From the NCBI GenBank assembly GCA_001600815.1, contig BCKZ01000017.1, positions 160,390 to 218,147 of the forward strand: a stretch of 57,758 nt of DNA, written 5' to 3'. Of this stretch, positions 2,595-50,989 are shown one piece after another. This stretch comes from Alloascoidea hylecoeti (lineage: Eukaryota). The notes under the pieces are model-generated. The model was not told the origin of the DNA. It searched no databases and saw only the letters and a list, made by a program, of their open reading frames with translations. Position numbers and translations under genes: made by a program. Position 1 is the stretch's first letter; every line of letters starts with the position of its first letter.

Positions 2595-3728
2595 ATGAGC
2601 TCAAGACTTATTGCTTCTCGTTCATTGCAGGGTACGTTATTTGCCTTGGAAGCAGCTTCTTCGGGGAGATTTATTTCAATTGCTGACTGTTACTGCTTTT
2701 TTTGTTATTAGCACTTCGCCCATCTGTTAGAATCGGAATTCAAGCATTACCGTAAGTCTTTCCATGAAAACTTTCCATGATTTTTCAACACACACCTTTT
2801 CATTGATCGATAATTATATTCAACGGGAATATATCTTGCTTATACAACTATTTTTCCTTTTTGATGTTTGTGGTGTTCCCAGAATATGCGTGAAATATTA
2901 AATTCCGGGTTGTGTCTAACCATAGCTGTATTTGCTGATCACTGATTGGACCTCTACACCAATATTCAACACTTTCCTTCAACTGACTTTTTAATCTTTT
3001 ATGAAGTTGTAGATGGAAACTCTGTTGCATATTAAGTGTATATGGAGCTCTAATTATTGATCAATCTTATACAAATGCCTTGTTAATCTAGATCTTGTAC
3101 CCGTTTTCTTTCAACAACCCCAGAAGAACCAAAAGCCAAAGCTGCTTCAATCATTGATGCTATCCCAGGCTCAAACCTCATTTCAAAGACCGGTATCCTC
3201 GCAACTTCAACTGCTGCTGCCGTCTATGCCATCAGCAACGAATTATATGTTGTAAATGAAGAATCAATTTTACTAGTCTGTTTTGGTCTTTTATCATACG
3301 GAATTGCTAAACTTGTTGCTCCAGGTATCACAGAAGCTGGTGATGCTAAAGTTAATGAAATTTCATCAATTTTAAACTCATCCCGTACTAAACACGTTGC
3401 TGCTGTTCAAGACCGTATCAATTCCGTTTCTCAATTGAAAGATGTTACAAAAACAACATCTGTTCTTTTTGAAATTTCAAAAGAAACTGCTCATTTAGAA
3501 GCTGAAGCTTTTGAATTAAAACAAAAAGTTGATATTGCTGCTGAAGCTAAAGCTGTTTTAGATTCATGGGTCAGATATGAAGCTTCTGTTAGACAAAGAG
3601 AACAAAAACAATTAGCTGAAGCCATTATTGCTAAAGTTAATAAAGAGGTTGTCAATCCTGACTTTCAACAAAAACTTTTGAGACAATCTGTTGATAATAT
3701 TGAAAAAATCTTCTCAAAGGCTAAATAA
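2595..3728 (+). CDS. ATP4: Mitochondrial ATP synthase subunit b (4); exons 2595-2631, 2712-2751, 3092-3728
   Basis: Introns GTACGT(2632)..TAG(2711) and GTAAGT(2752)..TAG(3091). Spliced product has an Arg/Ser-rich presequence MSSRLIASRSLQALRPSVRIGIQALPSCTRFLST followed by PKAKAASIIDAIPG...ISKTGIL...LDSWVRYEASVRQREQ. Confidence 0.92.
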
Positions 3729-5848: not shown

Positions 5849-5922
5849 CGACCTCGGAGAGGATTGAACTCTCGATCTTGCGATTAACAGTCGCACGCCT
5901 TAACCAGCTTGGCCACGAAGTC
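5849..5922 (-). tRNA. tRNA-Asn(GTT)
   Basis: Reverse complement GACTTCGTGGCCAAGCTGGTTAAGGCGTGCGACTGTTAATCGCAAGATCGAGAGTTCAATCCTCTCCGAGGTCG folds as a cloverleaf with anticodon GTT, close to yeast tRNA-Asn. A T-rich terminator follows. Confidence 0.97.
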
Positions 5923-19286: not shown

Positions 19287-20381
19287 TTACATAATAATTG
19301 ATTCTTTTTCAACATTTTCACCAATTGATTTATGGGGTAAAACTTTACCACCATTAATATAAACTTCATCTTTAACAGTAACATCATCACCTAAAACAGT
19401 AACATTTTGTAAACGACACCATTGACCAACAGAAGAATTCCAACCAACGATTGTTGATTTAATCCAAGCATGATTTTTAATGACAGAATTTGATAATATA
19501 ACGGATCTTTGAATTCTAACACCTTCACCAATTACAACATTTGGACCAATAACTACATTTGGACCAATTTTAGCAGAAGGATCAATTTTAGCAGATGGAT
19601 GAATCATCACATTACCAGCATGTACAAAAGATTCTTTTGTTGAAGCTAATTCAGTAGAATTTTTTCTTGTTAAAGAAGATAAATATAAACAAGTACCAGA
19701 TAAGAAATCTTTTGGTTGACCAACATCCATCCAAAAACTTTCTAAATCAAAAGAATATAAAGAATGTTGATCAACTAATTGAGGGAAAGTTTCCTTTTCG
19801 ATTGAAGTTGGTTTTAAATCGATTAAATCAATAACAGAAGGATTTAAGATATAGATACCAGCATTTATTCTATTACCAACAAATTCTTTTGGTTTTTCAA
19901 CAAATCTATCAATTAAATTTGGCTTGTTTATATCATGCACGATAACACCGTATTTGCTTGGTTCATCGACTTTTGTTGCAACGATTGTGCCTTGACCACC
20001 GTGGGCTAGATGGAAAGCAGCCAATTCTTTAAAGGGATATTCGCAAATGACATCAGAATTTAAAACGAAAAAAGGAGTATCGTCCTTTTTGAGAACGTCT
20101 TCGGCCAATCTCAAAGGGCCAGCAGTGCCCAAGGGCTCAGTTTCGACGGAAAAAGTGATCTTGACGCCAAACTCTTCCTCGTAGTTTTTCAGAGTAGCCA
20201 CCATGACCTCGGGCCTGTAGTTGACGGCCAGCACGATGTCCTTGACACCAGCCTCGGCCAGGGCCTCGATCTGGTGTCTGATCATGGGCTTGTTAGCGAA
20301 CTCGACCAAAGGCTTGGGGAGAGTGAGGGTCAGGGGTCTGAGACGGGTACCGTAGCCACCGACGAGAATAAGAGCTTTCAT
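19287..20381 (-). CDS. PSA1: Mannose-1-phosphate guanylyltransferase (GDP-mannose pyrophosphorylase)
   Basis: Starts [28 protein letters not shown] (ATG at 20381); also [20 protein letters not shown] and a hexapeptide-repeat C-terminus. Confidence 0.97.
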
Positions 20382-20659
20382 TGCGAGAGTAGGTAGCGAG
20401 AGACAGGGGAAGGGAGTCAAAGAGGGAAGGAAGAAGAAACGAAGAAACGAAGATATTTATATTTAATTTATGGAGTTACACACCGCCAAAAGGGAACACC
20501 GTGGCTTAACTCGACACGCACGCCGACGCACCCGCGCGCACGTGTGGAATGGACCTGCATCTGGGGTTCTATTTTTAGCAGCCCTCTCAGTTCTCAGGCT
20601 GTGCTCGAGGCCTGTGCTCGAGGCCTGTGTGCTCCAGGCCCCCCAGGCCCCCCAGGCCC

Positions 20660-20989
20660 CTACAGGCCTCTGCCGATTTCCGCCAGAAGGTCCACGGAGT
20701 TGCTGCGCTTGCCGTGCGAGTTTAGGTTCGACGTCCACCCGCCGCTCAGGCTCGTGAACACCCGCACACCGCCACCCGGGTGCTGTCTGGCCTGCTGGAC
20801 GCTCTCGTCGTAGGCGTCGTTCAGGTACTTGCTGATCTCGTCCGCGTTGAAGCCGTTCACCGCCTCGTAGCTGCGGATCTCGTGGGTCTTTGCGTGGCCG
20901 TAGCTGGCCCTGGGCTCCCTGGGCTCCCTGGGCTCCCTGGGCTCCCTGGGCTCCCTGGGTTTGCCCCCGGCTCGTCGTTTTCTGCTCAT
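20660..20989 (-). CDS. Small protein of unknown function (109 aa) with a PRE repeat
   Basis: ATG start, strongly G/C-ending codons matching the local bias, and a protein-like core (YEAVNGFNADEISKYLNDAY). Lies divergently to YSF3. Confidence 0.6.
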   Translation of the reverse strand: MSRKRRAGGKPREPREPREPREPREPRASYGHAKTHEIRSYEAVNGFNADEISKYLNDAYDESVQQARQHPGGGVRVFTSLSGGWTSNLNSHGKRSNSVDLLAEIGRGL

Positions 20990-21237
20990 CTTCGGTTACT
21001 ATGTGTCACATCTCGGCTGCGTCCGTGTAGTCCATCTTACCTCTCGTCCTGTGCCATCCTCGTGCCTGTGCCCTGTCTGGTCTCTCGTAGCGTGGTGGCT
21101 GAACGACAGCCCAAGCCCACACGCCCGTTCTCAAAAAAAATCTCCTCAAAACACCCACACGCCCGTTCTCAAAACACCCACACACCCGCCGCCACCCCTA
21201 CATCCTTACGCCCGCCACACCTCTCCTCCGCCACATT

Positions 21238-24376: not shown

Positions 24377-24412
<36 letters not shown>

Positions 24413-24838: not shown

Positions 24839-24871
<33 letters not shown>

Positions 24872-28283: not shown

Positions 28284-28307
28284 TGCGAACTCTGTGGATC
28301 GAACACA

Positions 28308-28349
<42 letters not shown>

Positions 28350-28356
28350 AGTCCGC
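28284..28356 (-). tRNA. tRNA-Phe(GAA), intronless
   Basis: GCGGACTTAGCTCAGTTGGGAGAGCGTCAGACTGAAGATCTGAAGGTCCTGTGTTCGATCCACAGAGTTCGCA, followed by a T6 terminator. Confidence 0.97.
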
Positions 28357-28370
28357 CGGAGAAAACAATA

Positions 28371-28444
28371 TGGACGACACCGGAATCGAACCGGGGACCT
28401 CTCGCATGCTAAGCGAATGTGATAACCAACTACACCAGACGCCC
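28371..28444 (-). tRNA. tRNA-Ala(AGC)
   Basis: GGGCGTCTGGTGTAGTTGGTTATCACATTCGCTTAGCATGCGAGAGGTCCCCGGTTCGATTCCGGTGTCGTCCA; G3:U70 Ala identity pair and anticodon AGC. Confidence 0.95.
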
Positions 28445-28855
28445 AACTTGATATCTGGAGGAATAATTAGTCCACCATGCGGCCGAAATTAAGTGGATTG
28501 AAATTTAGAAACCCAATCACGAACCTCCTAAATCCCTTAACTCTCAACGGTGCTCTCAAAGCCGGATGAGAAAGTGAAAATAGGAAGAGTGAGATAAAAC
28601 ACGTGACTGTTGGCGAGAAGCAACAATAACACAGCATGACGTACGCGTATAACGTTAATTGTATTAAATAATTCCGATGGCTGCAGATCTTTTCCCTGAG
28701 ACGATTACGTAAGACATATTCCCGAGAGTTGTAGCTGGCAAGTGCCGGATCTCTTTTCTTTTTCCTGCTGTCGTTTCTTTTTCTGACCCCAATTTGACTT
28801 TAAAAACAGCCATTTTCCTCTTCTTTCGCTTTTTCTCAAATCCCAAATCTTCCAA

Positions 28856-34900: not shown

Positions 34901-35877
34901 CGTGCAAACATTAAATATATCGAGGAAGCATATAATATATAATTTTTATCTTGTGTCCCCAGATCATTTGTATCCAATCATACAAGGCCTTATAAGGAAT
35001 CTCACTCGATCATCATTTAAAATTTTCCTTCAAGGACATGAATAGTTACCAAAAATCAAGAATTAGTATTGTTTTTATTTCTATTGAGCATAAACGTCAA
35101 CTTATACAAAAACCAACAAACAAATATATTTAACCTTTTGGCTTACAGAACTAAAATTTCAACCTTCAACTTTGCAGTTGAAAAAACAGGAAGCGCCTTC
35201 AATCAACTCCAAATCATTGGAGGAGAAACACATTGGGGTATCAGCTTTATTAATATTAATAGGACAAGTGATATCAGCTTATTCATACTTTTCTTAATAT
35301 TATAATATTAATTCATCCGTTATCACTACAATATTATACCGTTGGAACAATCTTGAACTAATTGTATTTAATGGGATAGATAACCATATTTATAAAGTGA
35401 ATCAATATTTATGACCAATTGTGATTGATACCAATGGAAAACGTTAATAATTTATATTTGAATACTCGGATCGGGGTGTAAAAACGTGGGCTGTTGCGAT
35501 ATCGTGATTGTATGTGAGGGTAGATCCTACCATGTACAGCGTTTCAGATCCTAAAACGTCCGTATTTCAACTATAAAGGCTTACAAACCTTTAAACGTCC
35601 GGTTGACCGGTTGATAAAAAACGCGCTGGACACCTTTTAGAGTATATAAATAGGAAACGTCCGGGCTGAATGAGGCATTTCCGACACGCTCCGGAGGCTG
35701 TTTTCCCGACTGCAGGATCTTGTCTGTGATTGGCTGGTATAAAATAACCCTTCGGAAAGCAGGAATATTTATAATGATTATAAATACTCCGCACTGGTTC
35801 GTTTTTCTTTTACTTGTCCTCTTCATCAACAAATTATTTATTTATTTAGTTAGTTATTCATTCAATTTGAAAACACA

Positions 35878-36933
35878 ATGTCTACAACCGGTGGTTTTAT
35901 TGATGATGTTGAAACAGACATCATTACCCTTTCTCGTTTTATCCTTCAAGAACAACACAAAGTTGGGGCTAAAGCAAGTGGGGATTTTACATTATTATTA
36001 AATTCTCTTCAATTTGCTTTTAAATTCATTGCTCATAATATAAGAAGATCAACTTTAGTTAACTTAATTGGTCTTGCTGGTGCTCAAAATTCAACTGGTG
36101 ATGACCAAAAGAAATTAGACGTTATTGGAGATGAAATATTTATTAACGCAATGAAAGGTAGTCACAATGTTAAAGTATTAGTTTCTGAGGAACAAGAAGA
36201 TTTAATTATTTTTGAAGGCAATGGAAAATATGCCGTTGTTTGTGATCCAATTGATGGATCATCAAATTTAGATGCTGGGGTTTCCGTTGGTACTATTTTT
36301 GGTATTTATAAATTATTACCTGATTCAAAAGGTTCTATTAAGGATGTTTTAAGACCAGGAACTGAAATGGTTGCTGCTGGATATACAATGTACGGTGCTT
36401 CAACGCATTTAATGTTGACTACTGGTGTTGGTGTGAATGGTTTTACTTTGGATACCAATCTTGGTGAATTCATCCTGACCAATCCTTCCTTAACACTCCC
36501 TAAGATTCGTACAATTTACTCAGTTAATGAAGGTAATACAAAATATTGGGAACAATCTACACAAGATTTCATTCATTCATTAAAATTCCCAGCTGATCCA
36601 AAGGCAAAACCTTACACTGCAAGATATGTTGGATCTATGGTTGCTGATATTCATCGTACTTTATTATATGGTGGATTTTATGCTTATCCAGCAGATAAAA
36701 AATCTAAAAAAGGAAAATTAAGAGTCTTATATGAATGCTTCCCAATGGCCTTTTTAATAGAACAAGCTGGTGGTTTAGCTGTCGATGATCAAGGTAATAG
36801 AATTATGGAATTACAACCAACAATGATTCATGAAAGAAGTGGCATTTGGTTAGGTAGTAGAGGTGAGATTGAGAAGTTCTTAACAACTATCCCAAAAAAA
36901 AACTTTTTGAAACTTCATCAAGATCCTCACTAA
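35878..36933 (+). CDS. FBP1: Fructose-1,6-bisphosphatase
   Basis: GDDQKKLDV, LVSEEQE, DPIDGSSNLD, RYVGSMVADIHRT, GKLRVLYE. See finding on a possible frameshift extension to 37136. Confidence 0.97.
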   Translation: MSTTGGFIDDVETDIITLSRFILQEQHKVGAKASGDFTLLLNSLQFAFKFIAHNIRRSTLVNLIGLAGAQNSTGDDQKKLDVIGDEIFINAMKGSHNVKVLVSEEQEDLIIFEGNGKYAVVCDPIDGSSNLDAGVSVGTIFGIYKLLPDSKGSIKDVLRPGTEMVAAGYTMYGASTHLMLTTGVGVNGFTLDTNLGEFILTNPSLTLPKIRTIYSVNEGNTKYWEQSTQDFIHSLKFPADPKAKPYTARYVGSMVADIHRTLLYGGFYAYPADKKSKKGKLRVLYECFPMAFLIEQAGGLAVDDQGNRIMELQPTMIHERSGIWLGSRGEIEKFLTTIPKKNFLKLHQDPH

Positions 36934-39534
36934 TTATTGATAATAATGGTAAAAGATCTAGATTTAAAATAGAAAATGAAAATGAATCAACAAAGACTTT
37001 AAAATCAATTAAAATGTCTAGATCTAAAATGATAACAAAACCAAGATTTTTAACAATTTATGAAGATGACAATGATAATTATATTGACGTTGATGATGAA
37101 AAATATCTAAAAACGAGAAAAAGGCCTAAAACTTAAGTTTGCTTGGACTTTTAAAAAATTATTATGGAAAATAGGCTCTTAAAATTAAAAAAAAAGAAAA
37201 AAAGTTGGAATCAAGGGGTATTTTTACCATATATTTATTATATTTAAATCCATTTATTATTTATTTATTTAACAAAAATCTATCATAATCATATAATGTG
37301 TGTGTGTTCCTTCACGACTACAATAATTAAAAATCAAAAATGCGATGCGTAAAATTTACTTTCTTTTTAACCAACCACTACTGGCAGACGAAGACTTGAG
37401 CAAGGAGTGATATTTGAAGAGTGTCGGATATAATTATAAGTTAAGTCAATGATTAAAAAAGCGTTAGTTTGTACTGGCATGTAAGCTTGAAAAAAATAGA
37501 GAAAAAGATCCAACGTCTCTGAGAATTAGCAGTTTCGAACCTGTTGGGGTTTCCTTTATCTAAATTTCGATGAATAAATAATAACATAAAAATTTGCAGT
37601 AAATATAAATTAACTATGCATAGTTTATAAATAAGGGTGTATCTACGGACGGACCCCTCTTTATTAAAGTCATTTCGCCTGCTTAAGGTGCTAATTCATG
37701 CACTAACGTTTGTCCATTCTTTTGGATACTTCTAATGCTCTATACACCAGATATTCGGCTCTTTTTTAACTTAATGCGGCCAAGGGAAATGGTAAGCAAT
37801 TGTTATAAATTTTGCTGAATATCTAGTCATTATATATATTATTATATAAGTCAAATAAACCGCCGAATTACGTAAGCCAAAATGGCACACCCTTCTTATT
37901 ATCATCTACGGTGGGAAGGATTTGATGATGGCTTCCGTATACCATTATCTAGGCGAATACTGGGAAAACGGTCAAACTTATTCCCTTCGTTTTTCAAAAA
38001 TTTAATGACCTCTACCACAAATTGGTATCAAGTCGTATAAAGATTTTAAGATAATTTGGGTTTAATCGGGTTGGTTATTCATTACAGCAGCTTAAATTGA
38101 TAATCTCTATTTATCACAGATTTTGATATAATTGAGGTAAGACACAATGCCATCATTTTCTGTTTTCAATAAATATCTTGCTATTTGGTTTATTAACTTC
38201 CACCCTTTTTTACTGTAACAGTAGATACTGTTTACAGTCTGAAACAATCAATTAACGATGAAATCCTAATCAACTCAATCAACTAGAAAATGAATGAAAT
38301 AAAGAAAAAGTATCACACTTTGTTCAACGTATTAACAAGATACATGTGAAATTGTTTAATTTTACTAATATCTGAGTTTTTACTGATCATTGGTGATTTT
38401 CTCTTGTTCATATTTCATCAATTAGTTGTTGATTAAAATTCTGAATACTGACTTTATAAATATATTTATAACTATATCAAAATCTTAGTGTTTGGAAAAG
38501 GATGTATATTATTCAATTTATAATTACTTCTACTCGACACACTTAATGCATTATACATCTGTACTGAGGTTTCATTGTGAGATTTATGTTACTGGCATCC
38601 ATGTAAGTTATAATTATGAATTACTATTCTACATTTACAATTGTAATGGAATACATAAAGGAAAATTTAAGAGAACGGCCACTCATTTCATTCTTCACCC
38701 TTAACTTTAATCGATCTGATATAATAAGTATGTCAGAAATGTTTGAAAGCTGCACTATCCCCTTGTGGTCCTCTATTTGATTGCTGGAATTCTGTGGTTA
38801 ACAAACTGTTCTTGTTAATCAACTTAACGAATCTTTGAGAAGTTGGATTGGAGGACGTGGGGATAAAGCAGGAGTATCAGTTTTCCCAGTATTGTAACAA
38901 TCAAAAGCTTGTTCAAATGAGTCGGTTGCCGTCGAAGGTAAATTCAAGTTGCATAAGTTATATGTCAACAAGTAGGAGGAAGTTGCAATTAAAACATAGT
39001 ATTTTACGGTATAATAAGCTGCGAAATTCGCTTATATTTAACAGAGCTCGTCGTTTCATATTAGTACAGTTAACCCTACCATAGTATTACACAACGAATT
39101 ATATTTATAATATTCACTAATTGTTCAACCTCCCATGAGACAGTTTAATTTTGTAAACCTTCTCATTATACTAACTTCACGATATGAATAATATAATAAT
39201 ATAAAGCCTTTTAGGAAACTTGGAATTTTCGTTGCCTATTTTAAAACATGACTAGTGATATTGATAAACTACTCCGTAAAAGGGTCTACAGAAAACTTTA
39301 TAGATTCAAAATATGTCTGACTGCTAGTGGTTAATGTTAATTGTAAAAAAATTCTGATATTAACGTTAAACGCACAAAACGAAATAGTATATATACTAGT
39401 TACGAAGTAGTATCAATATAGTTTGGTGGTGCCGTCCCTGTCCCCATCTCGAGAAATTACTCTTTTTCCTTAACCTTATTCGTTCAAATCAATACCCAAT
39501 AATACTACTCTGATAAATATTTAATAAAGTAATA

Positions 39535-42586: not shown

Positions 42587-44243
42587 ATGAGTGGAGGTAT
42601 GTCTGTTAATATTTTTGCAACTTTCGATGCAATTTGGATTGAAAGTGAAACGTTAGGCGTTCAAGTGGGGTCCCTCATCGATGCGTTTTTTTGGAAGCCA
42701 CGTCACAATGTGTCAACCCATTTAATTCCATAATGGTATCCCATGACAATCACAATACTTTAAATACACGTTTGAATTTCTATAGAATGTCCATTGACCT
42801 TTTTTAAATTTTATAATTTTAGTTCGTGTGTTGGATCTTGTGAAACCTTTCACGGCATATTTACCTGAAGTAATTGCACCTGAACGAAAAGTAGCATTTA
42901 ATCAAAGATTAATATGGACTGCTATCACTCTTTTAATTTTCCTTGTCATGTCTGAAGTTCCATTGTATGGAATTGCTTCCGCAGATAGTTCTGATCCTCT
43001 TCTTTGGTTGCGTATGATGCTTGCTAGTAACAGAGGTACTCTGATGGAATTAGGTGTTTCTCCAATTATCTCCTCTGGTATGGTTTTTCAATTATTGAGT
43101 GGAACTCAGATAATCTCCGTTAATATGGAAGTTAAATCGGATCGTGAATTGTTTCAAACTGCTCAAAAATTGTTTGCAATTATTTTATCTATAGGACAAG
43201 CTACTGTTTATGTTATGACTGGAATGTATGGTCCACCAAGTAGTTTAGGTACTGGAGTTTGTGTATTACTTGTTTTACAATTGGTTTTTGCAAGTATAAT
43301 TGTTATATTATTAGATGAATTATTACAAAAAGGTTATGGTTTAGGTTCCGGTATTTCTCTATTTACCGCAACAAATATTTGTGAACAAATTTTCTGGCGT
43401 GCTTTTGCTCCAACAACTGTTAATACAGGTAAAGGAGAAGAATTTGAAGGTGCTGTAGTTGCTGCAGTTCATTTATTATTCACCAAAAAGGATAAAAAGA
43501 GAGCACTCGTTGAAGCTTTTTATAGACAAAATTTACCAAATTTATTCCAATTAGCTTCTACAATTGCTATTTTCTTTATTGTTGTTTATTTACAAGGTTT
43601 CAGAGTTGAAATTCCTGTTAAATCAACTCGTCAAAGAGGTCCTTATGGTCTTTATCCAATTAGATTATTTTATACCTCAAATATGCCAATTATGTTACAA
43701 TCTGCTTTAACATCAAATATTTTTATTGTTTCACAAATGTTATTTGGAAAATTCCCAACAAATCCATTTGTTAAGTTTTTAGGATCTTGGGAAACAAGAC
43801 AAGCTACTTCTCAATGGACAGCAGTTGGAGGATTGGCTTATTATATTCAACCACCATTTAGTTTTACTGATGCATTACTTGATCCAATTAGAACTGCTGT
43901 TTATATTGTATTTGTGCTTTCTGCATGTGCTGTTTTTTCAAAAACTTGGATTGAAATTTCTGGAACATCTACAAGAGATGTATCTCAACAATTTAAAGAT
44001 CAAGGATTAGTTATTGCAGGACATCGTGATACATCAGTTTATAAAGAATTAAACCGAATCATTCCAGTTGCTGCTGCTTTTGGTGGTGCAACTATTGGTG
44101 CGTTATCAGTATTTTGTGATTTATTAGGAACTTTAGGTAGTGGAACATCAATTTTATTGGCAGCTACTACAATCTATGGTTATTATGAAACAGCTGTTAA
44201 AGAAGGTCAATTGGGTAAACCAAGTGATTTGGTTACCTTTTAA
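42587..44243 (+). CDS. SEC61: Sec61 translocon alpha subunit; exons 42587-42596 and 42823-44243
   Basis: ATG AGT GGA G|GTATGT..CATTGAC..TAG|TT CGT gives [13 protein letters not shown]. Also [28 protein letters not shown] and GSGTSILLA. Confidence 0.96.

Positions 44244-46897: not shown

Positions 46898-46988
<91 letters not shown>
46898..46988. repeat. Long poly(dA) tract (A54-T-A36) downstream of HCM1
   Basis: Directly visible homopolymer. Confidence 0.9.
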
Positions 46989-47114: not shown

Positions 47115-49460
<2,346 letters not shown>

Positions 49461-49700
49461 CGGAGTCTCAATATCGATACCAATACGAATATTCTCAGGA
49501 AAGAAGGAAAAGATCCAATTTATCCCAAAAGCGCGTTCGAGCTGCGCGTAATGCACGGCTGCAGACACCCACCGAGTCCCACGTGTGGCCGCATGCATCT
49601 GCGCTGGCCCACCCGGTCACCTGACGCGCGCCGGTTACCCGCCCTCCCCTCCTCCTTTGCTACCTGTCAACTCCGTCTTCACCACCCCCATTCCGGAAAA

Positions 49701-50989
49701 ATGTGCCTGAAATATCTTGCTCTGTCCCTCCTTTCCGTGGCTGGCTGTCTGGTTTCTGCCGAGGAGGAGCTGACGGCCGACGATATCCTGTATGTGTGTC
49801 CGCATTTGCTGTTTCGCCCAATTTTCTATTTTCACACTTTTCATACTAATATTCTAGTGAGCCTATAATTGATTCCGTCTCCGCAACCGCATCGGCCGTA
49901 GCTTCATCCGCCGCTGGAAGTGCTCCCAGCGTCTTGTCCAGAGATGAGTTGCTGAAAATGACCATCCTCGAAAGAGTCCTTGCCTATAACTGGACCCAAG
50001 AGTTTTACATTTTGGGAATGATCTTCTTTTTCGTTGCTCTTTATATCGGAGGTTCATATTGGAATAGAACAAAAGCAACCACTTGGATTGAAAAACATAA
50101 AGAAATGTTGGGCCAACAATTTCATCAGCTTGGAATCGATTCTAAAGGGAAACTTTATTATTCAGATGAGCCAAAAGAATTTATTACTTATGCTACTGGT
50201 CGTCAAAATATTGATAGTTTCAAAGCTACTTTAACTTTACCTGCAAGACATACTTTCATGCAATATATTATTGAATTAATTGTTTCTTTCTTTTTTGAAT
50301 CTGTCCCAACTCCACAAGAACATATTCAAATCATTTTAACTCCAAATAAATCTGCTGAATTTGATAATTTTATCTTTGCAATTGTTTCAAAAGAAGTTAT
50401 GACAAAAGCAAGAAATGAAAATTATTATTTATCTTTAACTAAAACAACTGATTCTTCAAAATTACCAATTAATTTTGTTTTTATGTCTGAAGCTGCTGAA
50501 ATAACTGATCTTTTATTTGATGTAAATTCAAAATTTAAAGAAGTTTTTGATTCTAATAATTCTGTATTAAATTATATTTCAATAACTGATCAAAATAATG
50601 AAAAACCTGATTCAATTGAATCGTTAACTTCAAATAGAAAAATAATTATTGATTTAAAATTTCCAAACAATTCAACCGAATATGAAGAATCAATTAAATT
50701 AATTGATGGTTCAATTAATTTTGTTGATTTTATTATTGAAAAAGCTCATTTTAGAAATGATATTTTGAAAAAAATTAAATCAACTAGACAAGTTGAAATT
50801 AATAAAATTCAAAAATTATTAGATGAACAAAAACAAGAAGAATTATCTGAAAAGAAAGCAGAAGAATTAAAATTAAAAAAGAAAGAATTATCTAAATTAA
50901 GTTCTTCTGAACAACGTAAAATTGAACAAAAAAGGAGAGAAAAAGAACAACGAAAACAAAGAAATAAACAACAAAAAAGAGTAAGATAA
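49701..50989 (+). CDS. CCDC47/YNR021W-like ER membrane protein (DUF1682); exons 49701-49789 and 49858-50989
   Basis: Signal peptide MCLKYLALSLLSVAGCLVSA. Intron GTATGT(49790)..TACTAAT..TAG(49857) is in frame. One TM segment, YATGRQN, FIFAIVSK, FVFMSE and a basic coiled-coil C-terminus. Confidence 0.88.

Follow-up and report, generated by a model that had tools for sequence, protein, structure and literature searches.

A coding-like −1 frame behind a nine-adenine tract at the 3′ end of FBP1: a candidate displaced C-terminal tail in an AT-rich budding yeast

In a 57,758-nt stretch of the Alloascoidea hylecoeti genome (contig BCKZ01000017.1, positions 160,390–218,147, forward strand; hereafter the window, with positions counted from its first letter), the gene FBP1, encoding fructose-1,6-bisphosphatase (FBPase), carries a run of nine adenines (A9) near its 3′ end, and from that run onward the −1 reading frame is open and behaves statistically like coding DNA. 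A −1 shift at the run, or a tenth adenine, would join 78 codons to the first 341 of the gene and give a protein of 419 aa. The account favored here, tentatively, is that these 78 codons are a lineage-specific tail of Fbp1 that lies one base out of frame through a change in the length of the A tract, and that it would be reached only by unprogrammed slippage or from an A10 allele. Homopolymers are classic sites of single-nucleotide indels. Together, a homopolymer at the junction, a coding-like frame that begins there and a complete enzyme upstream make a one-nucleotide change in tract length the best explanation. The A9 run is also the sole homopolymer of at least 8 within the 20.5 kb of confident coding sequence (CDS) in the window, and its position at the junction of the two frames is a coincidence that a homopolymer indel explains directly. 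The observation is real and non-trivial; it comes from one species and concerns an orphan sequence, and it is a candidate, not evidence of recoding.

The FBP1 Gene and Its Product

FBP1 occupies positions 35878–36933 of the plus strand in the list of open reading frames (ORFs), and its zero frame encodes 351 aa, including a 10-codon tail, NFLKLHQDPH, between the A tract and the TAA stop at 36931–36933. Judged by its domains, the product is an ordinary class-I fructose-1,6-bisphosphatase in which both Pfam domains are complete: FBPase (PF00316) covers residues 16–202 with 272.6 bits (cut-off 34.8), and FBPase_C (PF18913) covers residues 208–335 with 148.8 bits (cut-off 27). The best homologue other than the protein itself is a yeast protein of 341 aa (81% identity), followed by proteins of Saccharomycopsis, Wickerhamomyces, and other budding yeasts at 71–78% identity; together with a GC content of 32% for the window, this identifies the source as an AT-rich budding yeast. 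Chains of yeast Fbp1 in the PDB (7ns5, 7ns3) match at E = 1e-148 to 7e-149.

Solved FBPases align from query residue 10 to about residue 342, with homology ending at residues 333–343, and the mammalian chains stop 3–4 residues beyond the aligned part. The zero-frame product differs from its class in running 16 residues past the conserved KFL, whereas 15 aligned yeast relatives continue for only 3–11. Among the listed homologues (n = 120) lengths range from 330 to 378 aa, apart from one fish protein of 608 aa, and the 378-aa protein is longer at its N terminus; none of the 119 that remain when the window’s own entry is excluded has a long C-terminal tail. By this comparison the zero-frame product is an FBPase of normal length, and this 351-aa protein, already on record in unchanged form, is what FBP1 encodes.

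The Nine-Adenine Tract

The tract reads C3A9C at 36891–36903 (plus strand), with the nine adenines at 36894–36902 and a C on either side. In the zero frame, positions 36889–36903 are read ATC CCA AAA AAA AAC, which makes the A tract codons 340–341 plus one flanking base on each side. Two slippery heptamers, C CCA AAA (36891–36897) and A AAA AAC (36897–36903), are in phase with the ORF from 35878; the zero-frame stop, the tract, and the phasing of both heptamers are just as an earlier note on this DNA had read them. Direct reading of the three tract lengths gives 344 aa for A8 (ending IPKKTF-stop), 351 aa for A9, and 419 aa (341 + 78) for A10. The tract sits where the conserved FBPase fold ends, so that changes of the tail cost the enzyme nothing.

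The length of the tract was checked on Logan contigs of sequencing runs from different studies, mapped onto the window; such contigs conceal minor variants and could hide a rare A10 subpopulation. A single contig from a wood-decay metagenome (X1) covers 35869–37700 with 0 gaps at a word depth of 7.9, another, from organism A (X2), covers the same interval with 0 gaps at 21.5, and a third, also from organism A and from another study (X4), covers 36458–37698 with 0 gaps at 5.7. None of the three contains an insertion or deletion at the A9 tract. A fourth run (X5) yielded fragments identical to 36982–37175. The window could derive from X2 or from X4, both of which match it exactly. X1 departs from the window at one synonymous single-nucleotide polymorphism, 36138 A>C; it therefore cannot be the source and is taken as a second strain. 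The nine adenines are thus genuine genomic sequence and no assembly slip, and a wrong majority length is unlikely. An assembly indel, which the earlier note had kept as a real alternative, is largely removed by this gap-free passage in contigs of three studies.

The Open −1 Frame

The −1 frame is free of stops from 36873 to TAA 37134–37136 (plus strand; stop-to-stop list), that is, for 87 sense codons, with the extent and translation that the earlier note had quoted. The codons that a −1 shift or A10 would append lie at 36900–37133, number 78, and read KLFETSS...RKRPKT. Within them, an ORF begins at the sole ATG (37014–37136; MSRSKM...RKRPKT); its 40-aa product is in the ORF list, and an identical 40-aa protein is on record (P0122). 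A repeat search found two direct repeats of 21 nt, 86% identical, at 36950–36970 and 37010–37030, whose spacing of 60 nt keeps them in frame. The 60-nt units that carry them are 52% identical, against 37% for shuffled sequence (p = 0.007). Recent tandem duplication was rejected as the main cause of the open frame, there being just one 21-nt pair while the other pairs of units are at the level of shuffles. An intron joining the two frames was likewise rejected for lack of any GTATGT-type 5′ splice-site hexamer within 35600–37140, an interval with a single branch-like ACTAA, at 36928.

The probability for one given frame to remain open over 77 codons was computed exactly from order-2 Markov models. 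Training on the segment itself yields 6e-5, training on three further A-rich 3′ flanks 6e-4, and training on the 3′ flanks of the 12 other genes examined 3e-3. Past the stop codon, an alternative frame stays open for 68 codons in FBP1, and either one for at most 37 in the 12 other genes of the window. Stretches from stop to stop that reach 87 codons number 61 of 8046 in the window, mostly in or over real genes. Taken as a single test, the open −1 frame exceeds chance. In a very large scan, a probability of about 1e-3 is unremarkable alone, and the structure of the codon phase is what adds evidence.

For the codon score, codon frequencies were taken from the 12 other window genes and strand-symmetric trinucleotide frequencies from the DNA outside genes, and the log-likelihood ratio (LLR) was summed over sense codons only, so the missing stops add nothing to it; all nulls and training data come from the single 57.8-kb window. 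Over 77 codons, the LLR of the −1 frame is +16.2 to +16.9 bits; the other two frames have −14.5 and −14.0, and true in-frame windows of 77 codons average +17.1 (standard deviation 16.0, n = 5524). Stop-free order-2 simulations under the segment model average −4.4 (standard deviation 6.6), with 0.2% of 1500 equaling the observed value, and under a model from the other A-rich flanks none of 1500 does. Outside the 13 genes, the only other open stretch of at least 60 codons with a higher score per codon is 3087–3728, evidently a real gene; the −1 frame has 0.21 per codon, the antisense frame of 3087–3728 has 0.15, and all the rest have at most 0.06. Among noncoding windows with at least 44% A, 0 of 2331 reach the score of the −1 frame, and their maximum of 0.202 is due to an (ACT)n microsatellite. 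In view of these simulations and A-rich noncoding windows, the idea that A-richness produces the codon score was rejected.

In base composition, too, the three codon positions follow the genes: position 2 is rich in C, position 1 in G, and position 3 in T. Periodicity tested by chi-square has p = 1e-4 naively and p = 0.005–0.024 under the stop-free null, and the excess of C at position 2, picked post hoc, is reached by at most 0.1% of simulations. The signal sets in directly behind the tract, where the initial 19 codons contribute +6.7. The 37 codons ahead of the sole ATG at 37014 contribute +11.3, more than the +4.9 of the 40 codons from there on, which ties the ORF to FBP1 and not to an independent start at that ATG. 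Statistically, then, the −1 ORF behaves like coding DNA.

Searches for Relatives of the Tail

The tail is an orphan. Pfam gave no family for it, word-indexed searches over 5.8e9 clusters gave no tail-bearing protein of near or greater length, and the ESM Atlas gave no usable match. A phmmer search of 1.84e9 representatives returned only the window’s own 40-aa ORF and a low-complexity protein of 946 aa (E = 1.4e-6). A tblastn search of the tail against 80 fungal FBP1 loci had a best E of 0.19. This best match, to an acidic motif in the metagenome locus L008, spans 19 residues, 9 of 19 identical (YIDVDDEKYL against YLDSDDEKLL), with a post hoc pairwise E of 6e-4; it is of low complexity, its motif is absent elsewhere in the 80 loci, and it was set aside as probably a chance low-complexity resemblance. 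The L008 segment concerned belongs to a same-strand gene directly downstream of FBP1 (L008 1262–2455), which carries KRKRKPNKRYLDSDDEKLL, resembling the YIDVDDEKYLKTRKRP end of the −1 ORF. The nearest Atlas clusters of that gene are hypothetical proteins, most commonly of the phylum Basidiomycota, and the gene lacks both a Pfam family and a PDB relative.

At the level of the junction, nine metagenome loci provided seven distinct complete yeast FBP1 3′ ends (L001, L002 = L003, L004, L005, L006, L007, and L010 = L016), L022 and L080 being left out of the count because their match is incomplete or interrupted before the true end. The earlier note had looked to related FBP1 3′ regions for a conserved A run with an open −1 frame, and this was not found in the seven ends, where the open stretch is at most 28 codons. 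A shift site with a trans-frame ORF is absent both from these seven 3′ ends and from the 119 listed homologues, the nearest homologue being only 81% identical; a scan of metagenomes for FBP1 produced nothing closer than 75% identity.

A Tail Displaced by a Change in Tract Length

Under the favored explanation, the 78 codons are, or recently were, a lineage-specific and probably disordered C-terminal tail of Fbp1, which a change in homopolymer length would have put one nucleotide out of frame. The enzyme core would be unaffected by a tail of the A8, A9, or A10 kind. By default, the gene would yield the 351-aa enzyme, and the 419-aa form would arise only through low-level slippage of RNA polymerase II or of the ribosome at A9/A AAA AAC, or in an A10 revertant. 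What the data show is a genuine tract followed by an open, orphan frame with coding-type statistics; that a former tail suffered an indel, and that the tail is expressed at all today, we infer.

The closest known kind of case is the frameshifting indel in a poly(A) homopolymer that truncates or alters the end of a protein, with possible low-level rescue by slippage in transcription or translation; an example is the run of 8 A’s in human APC, as set out in the available part of a review (Atkins et al., 2016, PMC5009743). As in cases of the APC type, the long A run lies exactly at the frame junction of FBP1, coding statistics are found on both sides of it in offset frames, and slippage in replication as well as in transcription is physically plausible at A9. 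Unlike them, the FBP1 enzyme is complete either way, so that nothing is rescued, no in-frame version was seen in any strain or relative examined, and slippage at FBP1 is a proposal from sequence.

Several observations weigh against a displaced tail. It has no homologue in the searches made, such a tail occurs in no relative examined, and its translated past is inferred from statistics alone; in the seven other yeast FBP1 3′ ends, the alternative frames are open for 3–28 codons. The periodicity p is modest (0.005–0.024) under the fair, stop-free null. Without the acidic repeat-like blocks ENENE and EDDNDNYIDVDDE, the LLR falls to +3.8 over 59 codons, while the periodicity stays. The finding was chosen from a very large scan, and part of its improbability is selection. 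An A10 allele was not seen in the three contig sets, which drop minor variants.

Alternative Explanations

The first alternative is chance, by which an A-rich 3′ untranslated region would happen to be stop-free in one frame and the A9 run would be ordinary in AT-rich DNA. It is unlikely, though it survives best of the alternatives. The window, at 32% GC, holds 38 homopolymer runs of at least 8, 3 of 12 other 3′ flanks are equally A-rich, and the flank of SEC61 has one frame open for 63 codons; the orphan status of the tail, the drop in score once the two acidic blocks are removed, and selection from a large scan also fit chance. Against it stand the probability of the frame being open (6e-5 to 3e-3) and, once it is open, the persistence of coding-like statistics in the simulations, the periodicity test, and the A-rich windows alike. 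The (ACT)n microsatellite accounts for the one other flank that is strongly periodic, and no such array covers the tail, where TRF found just one 21-nt AAAATG array. That microsatellite, (ACT)n/(TAC)n at 1370–1430, lies directly past the stop of a 438-codon ORF that ends at 1319; it has strong three-base periodicity and the top coding-like score among A-rich noncoding windows, and is a caution for tests of periodicity.

The second alternative, which the earlier note had put forward, is selected dual coding: slippage of the polymerase or the ribosome at A9 would add to the 351-aa enzyme a minor Fbp1 form of 419 aa, whose basic tail resembles a nuclear localization signal (NLS). The A9 run would then be a maintained slippage site, and the long form, with a basic nuclear-targeting tail, a very young and lineage-specific birth of dual coding. 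This we regard as distinctly improbable; to our knowledge, slippage has not been described as the source of a cellular isoform for any central gluconeogenic enzyme in a yeast. Dual coding is in keeping with the in-phase heptamers, the open and coding-like −1 ORF, and the identity of A9 in two strains. The description of A AAA AAC as a known slippery site agrees with the available text of Atkins et al. (2016, PMC5009743), which lists A_AAA_AAC with the heptamers on which mammalian ribosomes shift most readily and describes A runs as sites of slippage. The same source supplies a fungal precedent, and the closest fungal programmed analogue that it offers, in the −1 shift of the Rab-GDI displacement factor (YIP3) of Pezizomycotina, where a U_UUU_UCC site with a pseudoknot 2 nt downstream has been conserved for about 400 million years (PMC5009743). 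Like that case, FBP1 is a fungal chromosomal gene with the site near the end of the conserved ORF, followed by a less conserved and lineage-restricted C-terminal extension; unlike it, FBP1 belongs to another fungal subphylum and has neither a predicted structure nor detected conservation.

Of the parts of a frameshift cassette, the in-phase heptamer is present and a stable stimulatory structure is not. For the 72 nt that follow the site, the predicted folding energy is −7.9 kcal/mol (z = 0.00), matched by 86 of 200 shuffles; for the 120 nt, it is −11.3 kcal/mol (z = +0.58), matched by 147 of 200, and the sole predicted hairpin starts 13 nt past the site. With a folding tool that cannot predict pseudoknots, no stimulatory stem-loop beyond the level of shuffles was therefore found a few nucleotides 3′ of the site; the earlier note had seen no strong pseudoknot. 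No tRNA or Rfam features were found near the tract. A site of transcriptional slippage takes a run of about 7–9 or more A or T in the template, a length that A9 attains. The A8 example of Atkins et al. (2016), in the portion available, agrees with that threshold in part (PMC5009743). For ribosomes sliding on poly(A), robust sliding required A11 in a series of reporters with 9, 10, 11, and 13 A’s, according to the part of the study at hand (Koutmou et al., 2015, PMC4363877). FBP1 resembles that system in having consecutive AAA lysine codons in its CDS, runs on which loss of frame was reported; it differs in that A9, flanked by C, falls short of the about 11 or more consecutive A’s of that study (PMC4363877), and at most a weak effect is expected.

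The basic motif RKRPK, at 37116–37130 on the plus strand by codon-by-codon reading and motif count, closes the −1 ORF. A classical monopartite NLS has the core consensus K-(K/R)-X-(K/R) in an exposed region and drives nuclear import. The tail has two matches to K[KR]x[KR], KRPK and KRSR, and 6 of the 13 ordinary window proteins checked have 12 between them. The motif is thus nonspecific in the proteins of the window, and RKRPK, which the earlier note had taken as a pointer to a nuclear isoform, carries little weight as an NLS. In addition, conservation of the site was detected in no relative examined. Programmed recoding at A9 is not supported, having neither a predicted stimulatory structure nor detected conservation behind it; of the two possibilities raised in the earlier note, recoding or switching of tract length, it is the second that fits the data better.

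A third alternative detaches the open frame from Fbp1, making it a relic of another gene whose 3′ end was rearranged to this place, or a small independent ORF such as 37014–37136. It is quite improbable. The order and orientation of FBP1 and SEC61 differ from those at five other yeast loci, which makes a breakpoint near FBP1 plausible; the 2.4 kb past the tail contain no ORF of at least 87 codons and do contain a dispersed repeat; and the 40-aa ORF exists as a called protein. Against either form of this explanation, the coding-like signal is present from the A tract onward and is weaker past the sole ATG than before it. No 5′ splice-site hexamer is available in 35600–37140 to supply an upstream exon, and a tblastx comparison of 36934–39516 with the 80 fungal FBP1 loci gave no match at E ≤ 1e-2. 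Both forms would also leave the A9 run at the junction a coincidence.

Finally, a sequencing or assembly error, by which the true tract would be A10 and FBP1 one ORF of 419 aa, would suit both the proneness of homopolymers to indel errors and the coding-like frame downstream, and it is very improbable, since A9 is read with 0 gaps in each of three contig sets, which come from as many studies and include a different strain.

Surroundings of the Locus

Upstream of FBP1, the 9-mer AAACGTCCG occurs at 35554, 35593, and 35655, about 215–325 nt before the start of the gene, and nowhere else in the window. Within the region 35460–35760, its count of 3 compares with 0.06 expected, and 0 of 100 shuffles had 3. 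The copy at 35593 continues into a palindrome, CCGGTTGACCGG. These CGG-containing AAACGTCCG repeats resemble carbon-source-responsive promoter elements of the zinc-cluster type.

Downstream, an ORF-poor interval of 2.4 kb (37137–39516) separates FBP1 from the next gene. It contains, at 37325–37382, the dispersed repeat, about 50 nt that match several other contigs of the same organism with 3–6 differences (X1, X2, X4, and X5). SEC61 lies at 42798–44243, 5.9 kb downstream of FBP1 and on the same strand. At other loci SEC61 is found upstream of FBP1, on the opposite strand in L002–L005 and L022 and on the same strand in L016. The linkage of SEC61 and FBP1 is thus kept in a changed arrangement, which indicates a local rearrangement with a breakpoint near FBP1.

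Elsewhere in the 32% GC window, two GC islands, at 20001–21000 (57%) and 49001–50000 (59.5%), each lie at the 5′ ends of genes. The first adjoins a GMPP-like gene (19287–20456, minus strand), and its GC-rich short repeats read PREPRE... or QGAQGA... in open frames of 111–180 codons; the second is located between a forkhead gene (47115–49616, minus strand) and a CCDC47-like gene (49850–50989, plus strand). Long intergenic A tracts are present at 46898–46988 (A54, one other base, A36) and at 24381–24410 and 24840–24870 (A30 and A31). Three tRNA genes were noted: tRNA-Phe(GAA) and tRNA-Ala(AGC), 13 nt apart on the minus strand at 28284–28445 and directly upstream of a TPR-repeat gene, and tRNA-Asn(GTT) at 5849–5922.

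Implications for C-Terminal Evolution in AT-Rich Yeasts

Whichever reading holds, gene callers report just the 351-aa product of FBP1 and a separate 40-aa ORF. If the long form were made and used, a metabolic enzyme would be gaining a second, possibly nuclear, isoform by slippage, and the locus would be a tractable yeast model for unstimulated recoding at an A tract. If instead the tail was recently displaced, the locus would be an ordinary but clean snapshot of the way in which homopolymers remodel C termini in AT-rich yeast genomes, with a conserved enzyme tolerating three different tails, those of A8, A9, and A10.

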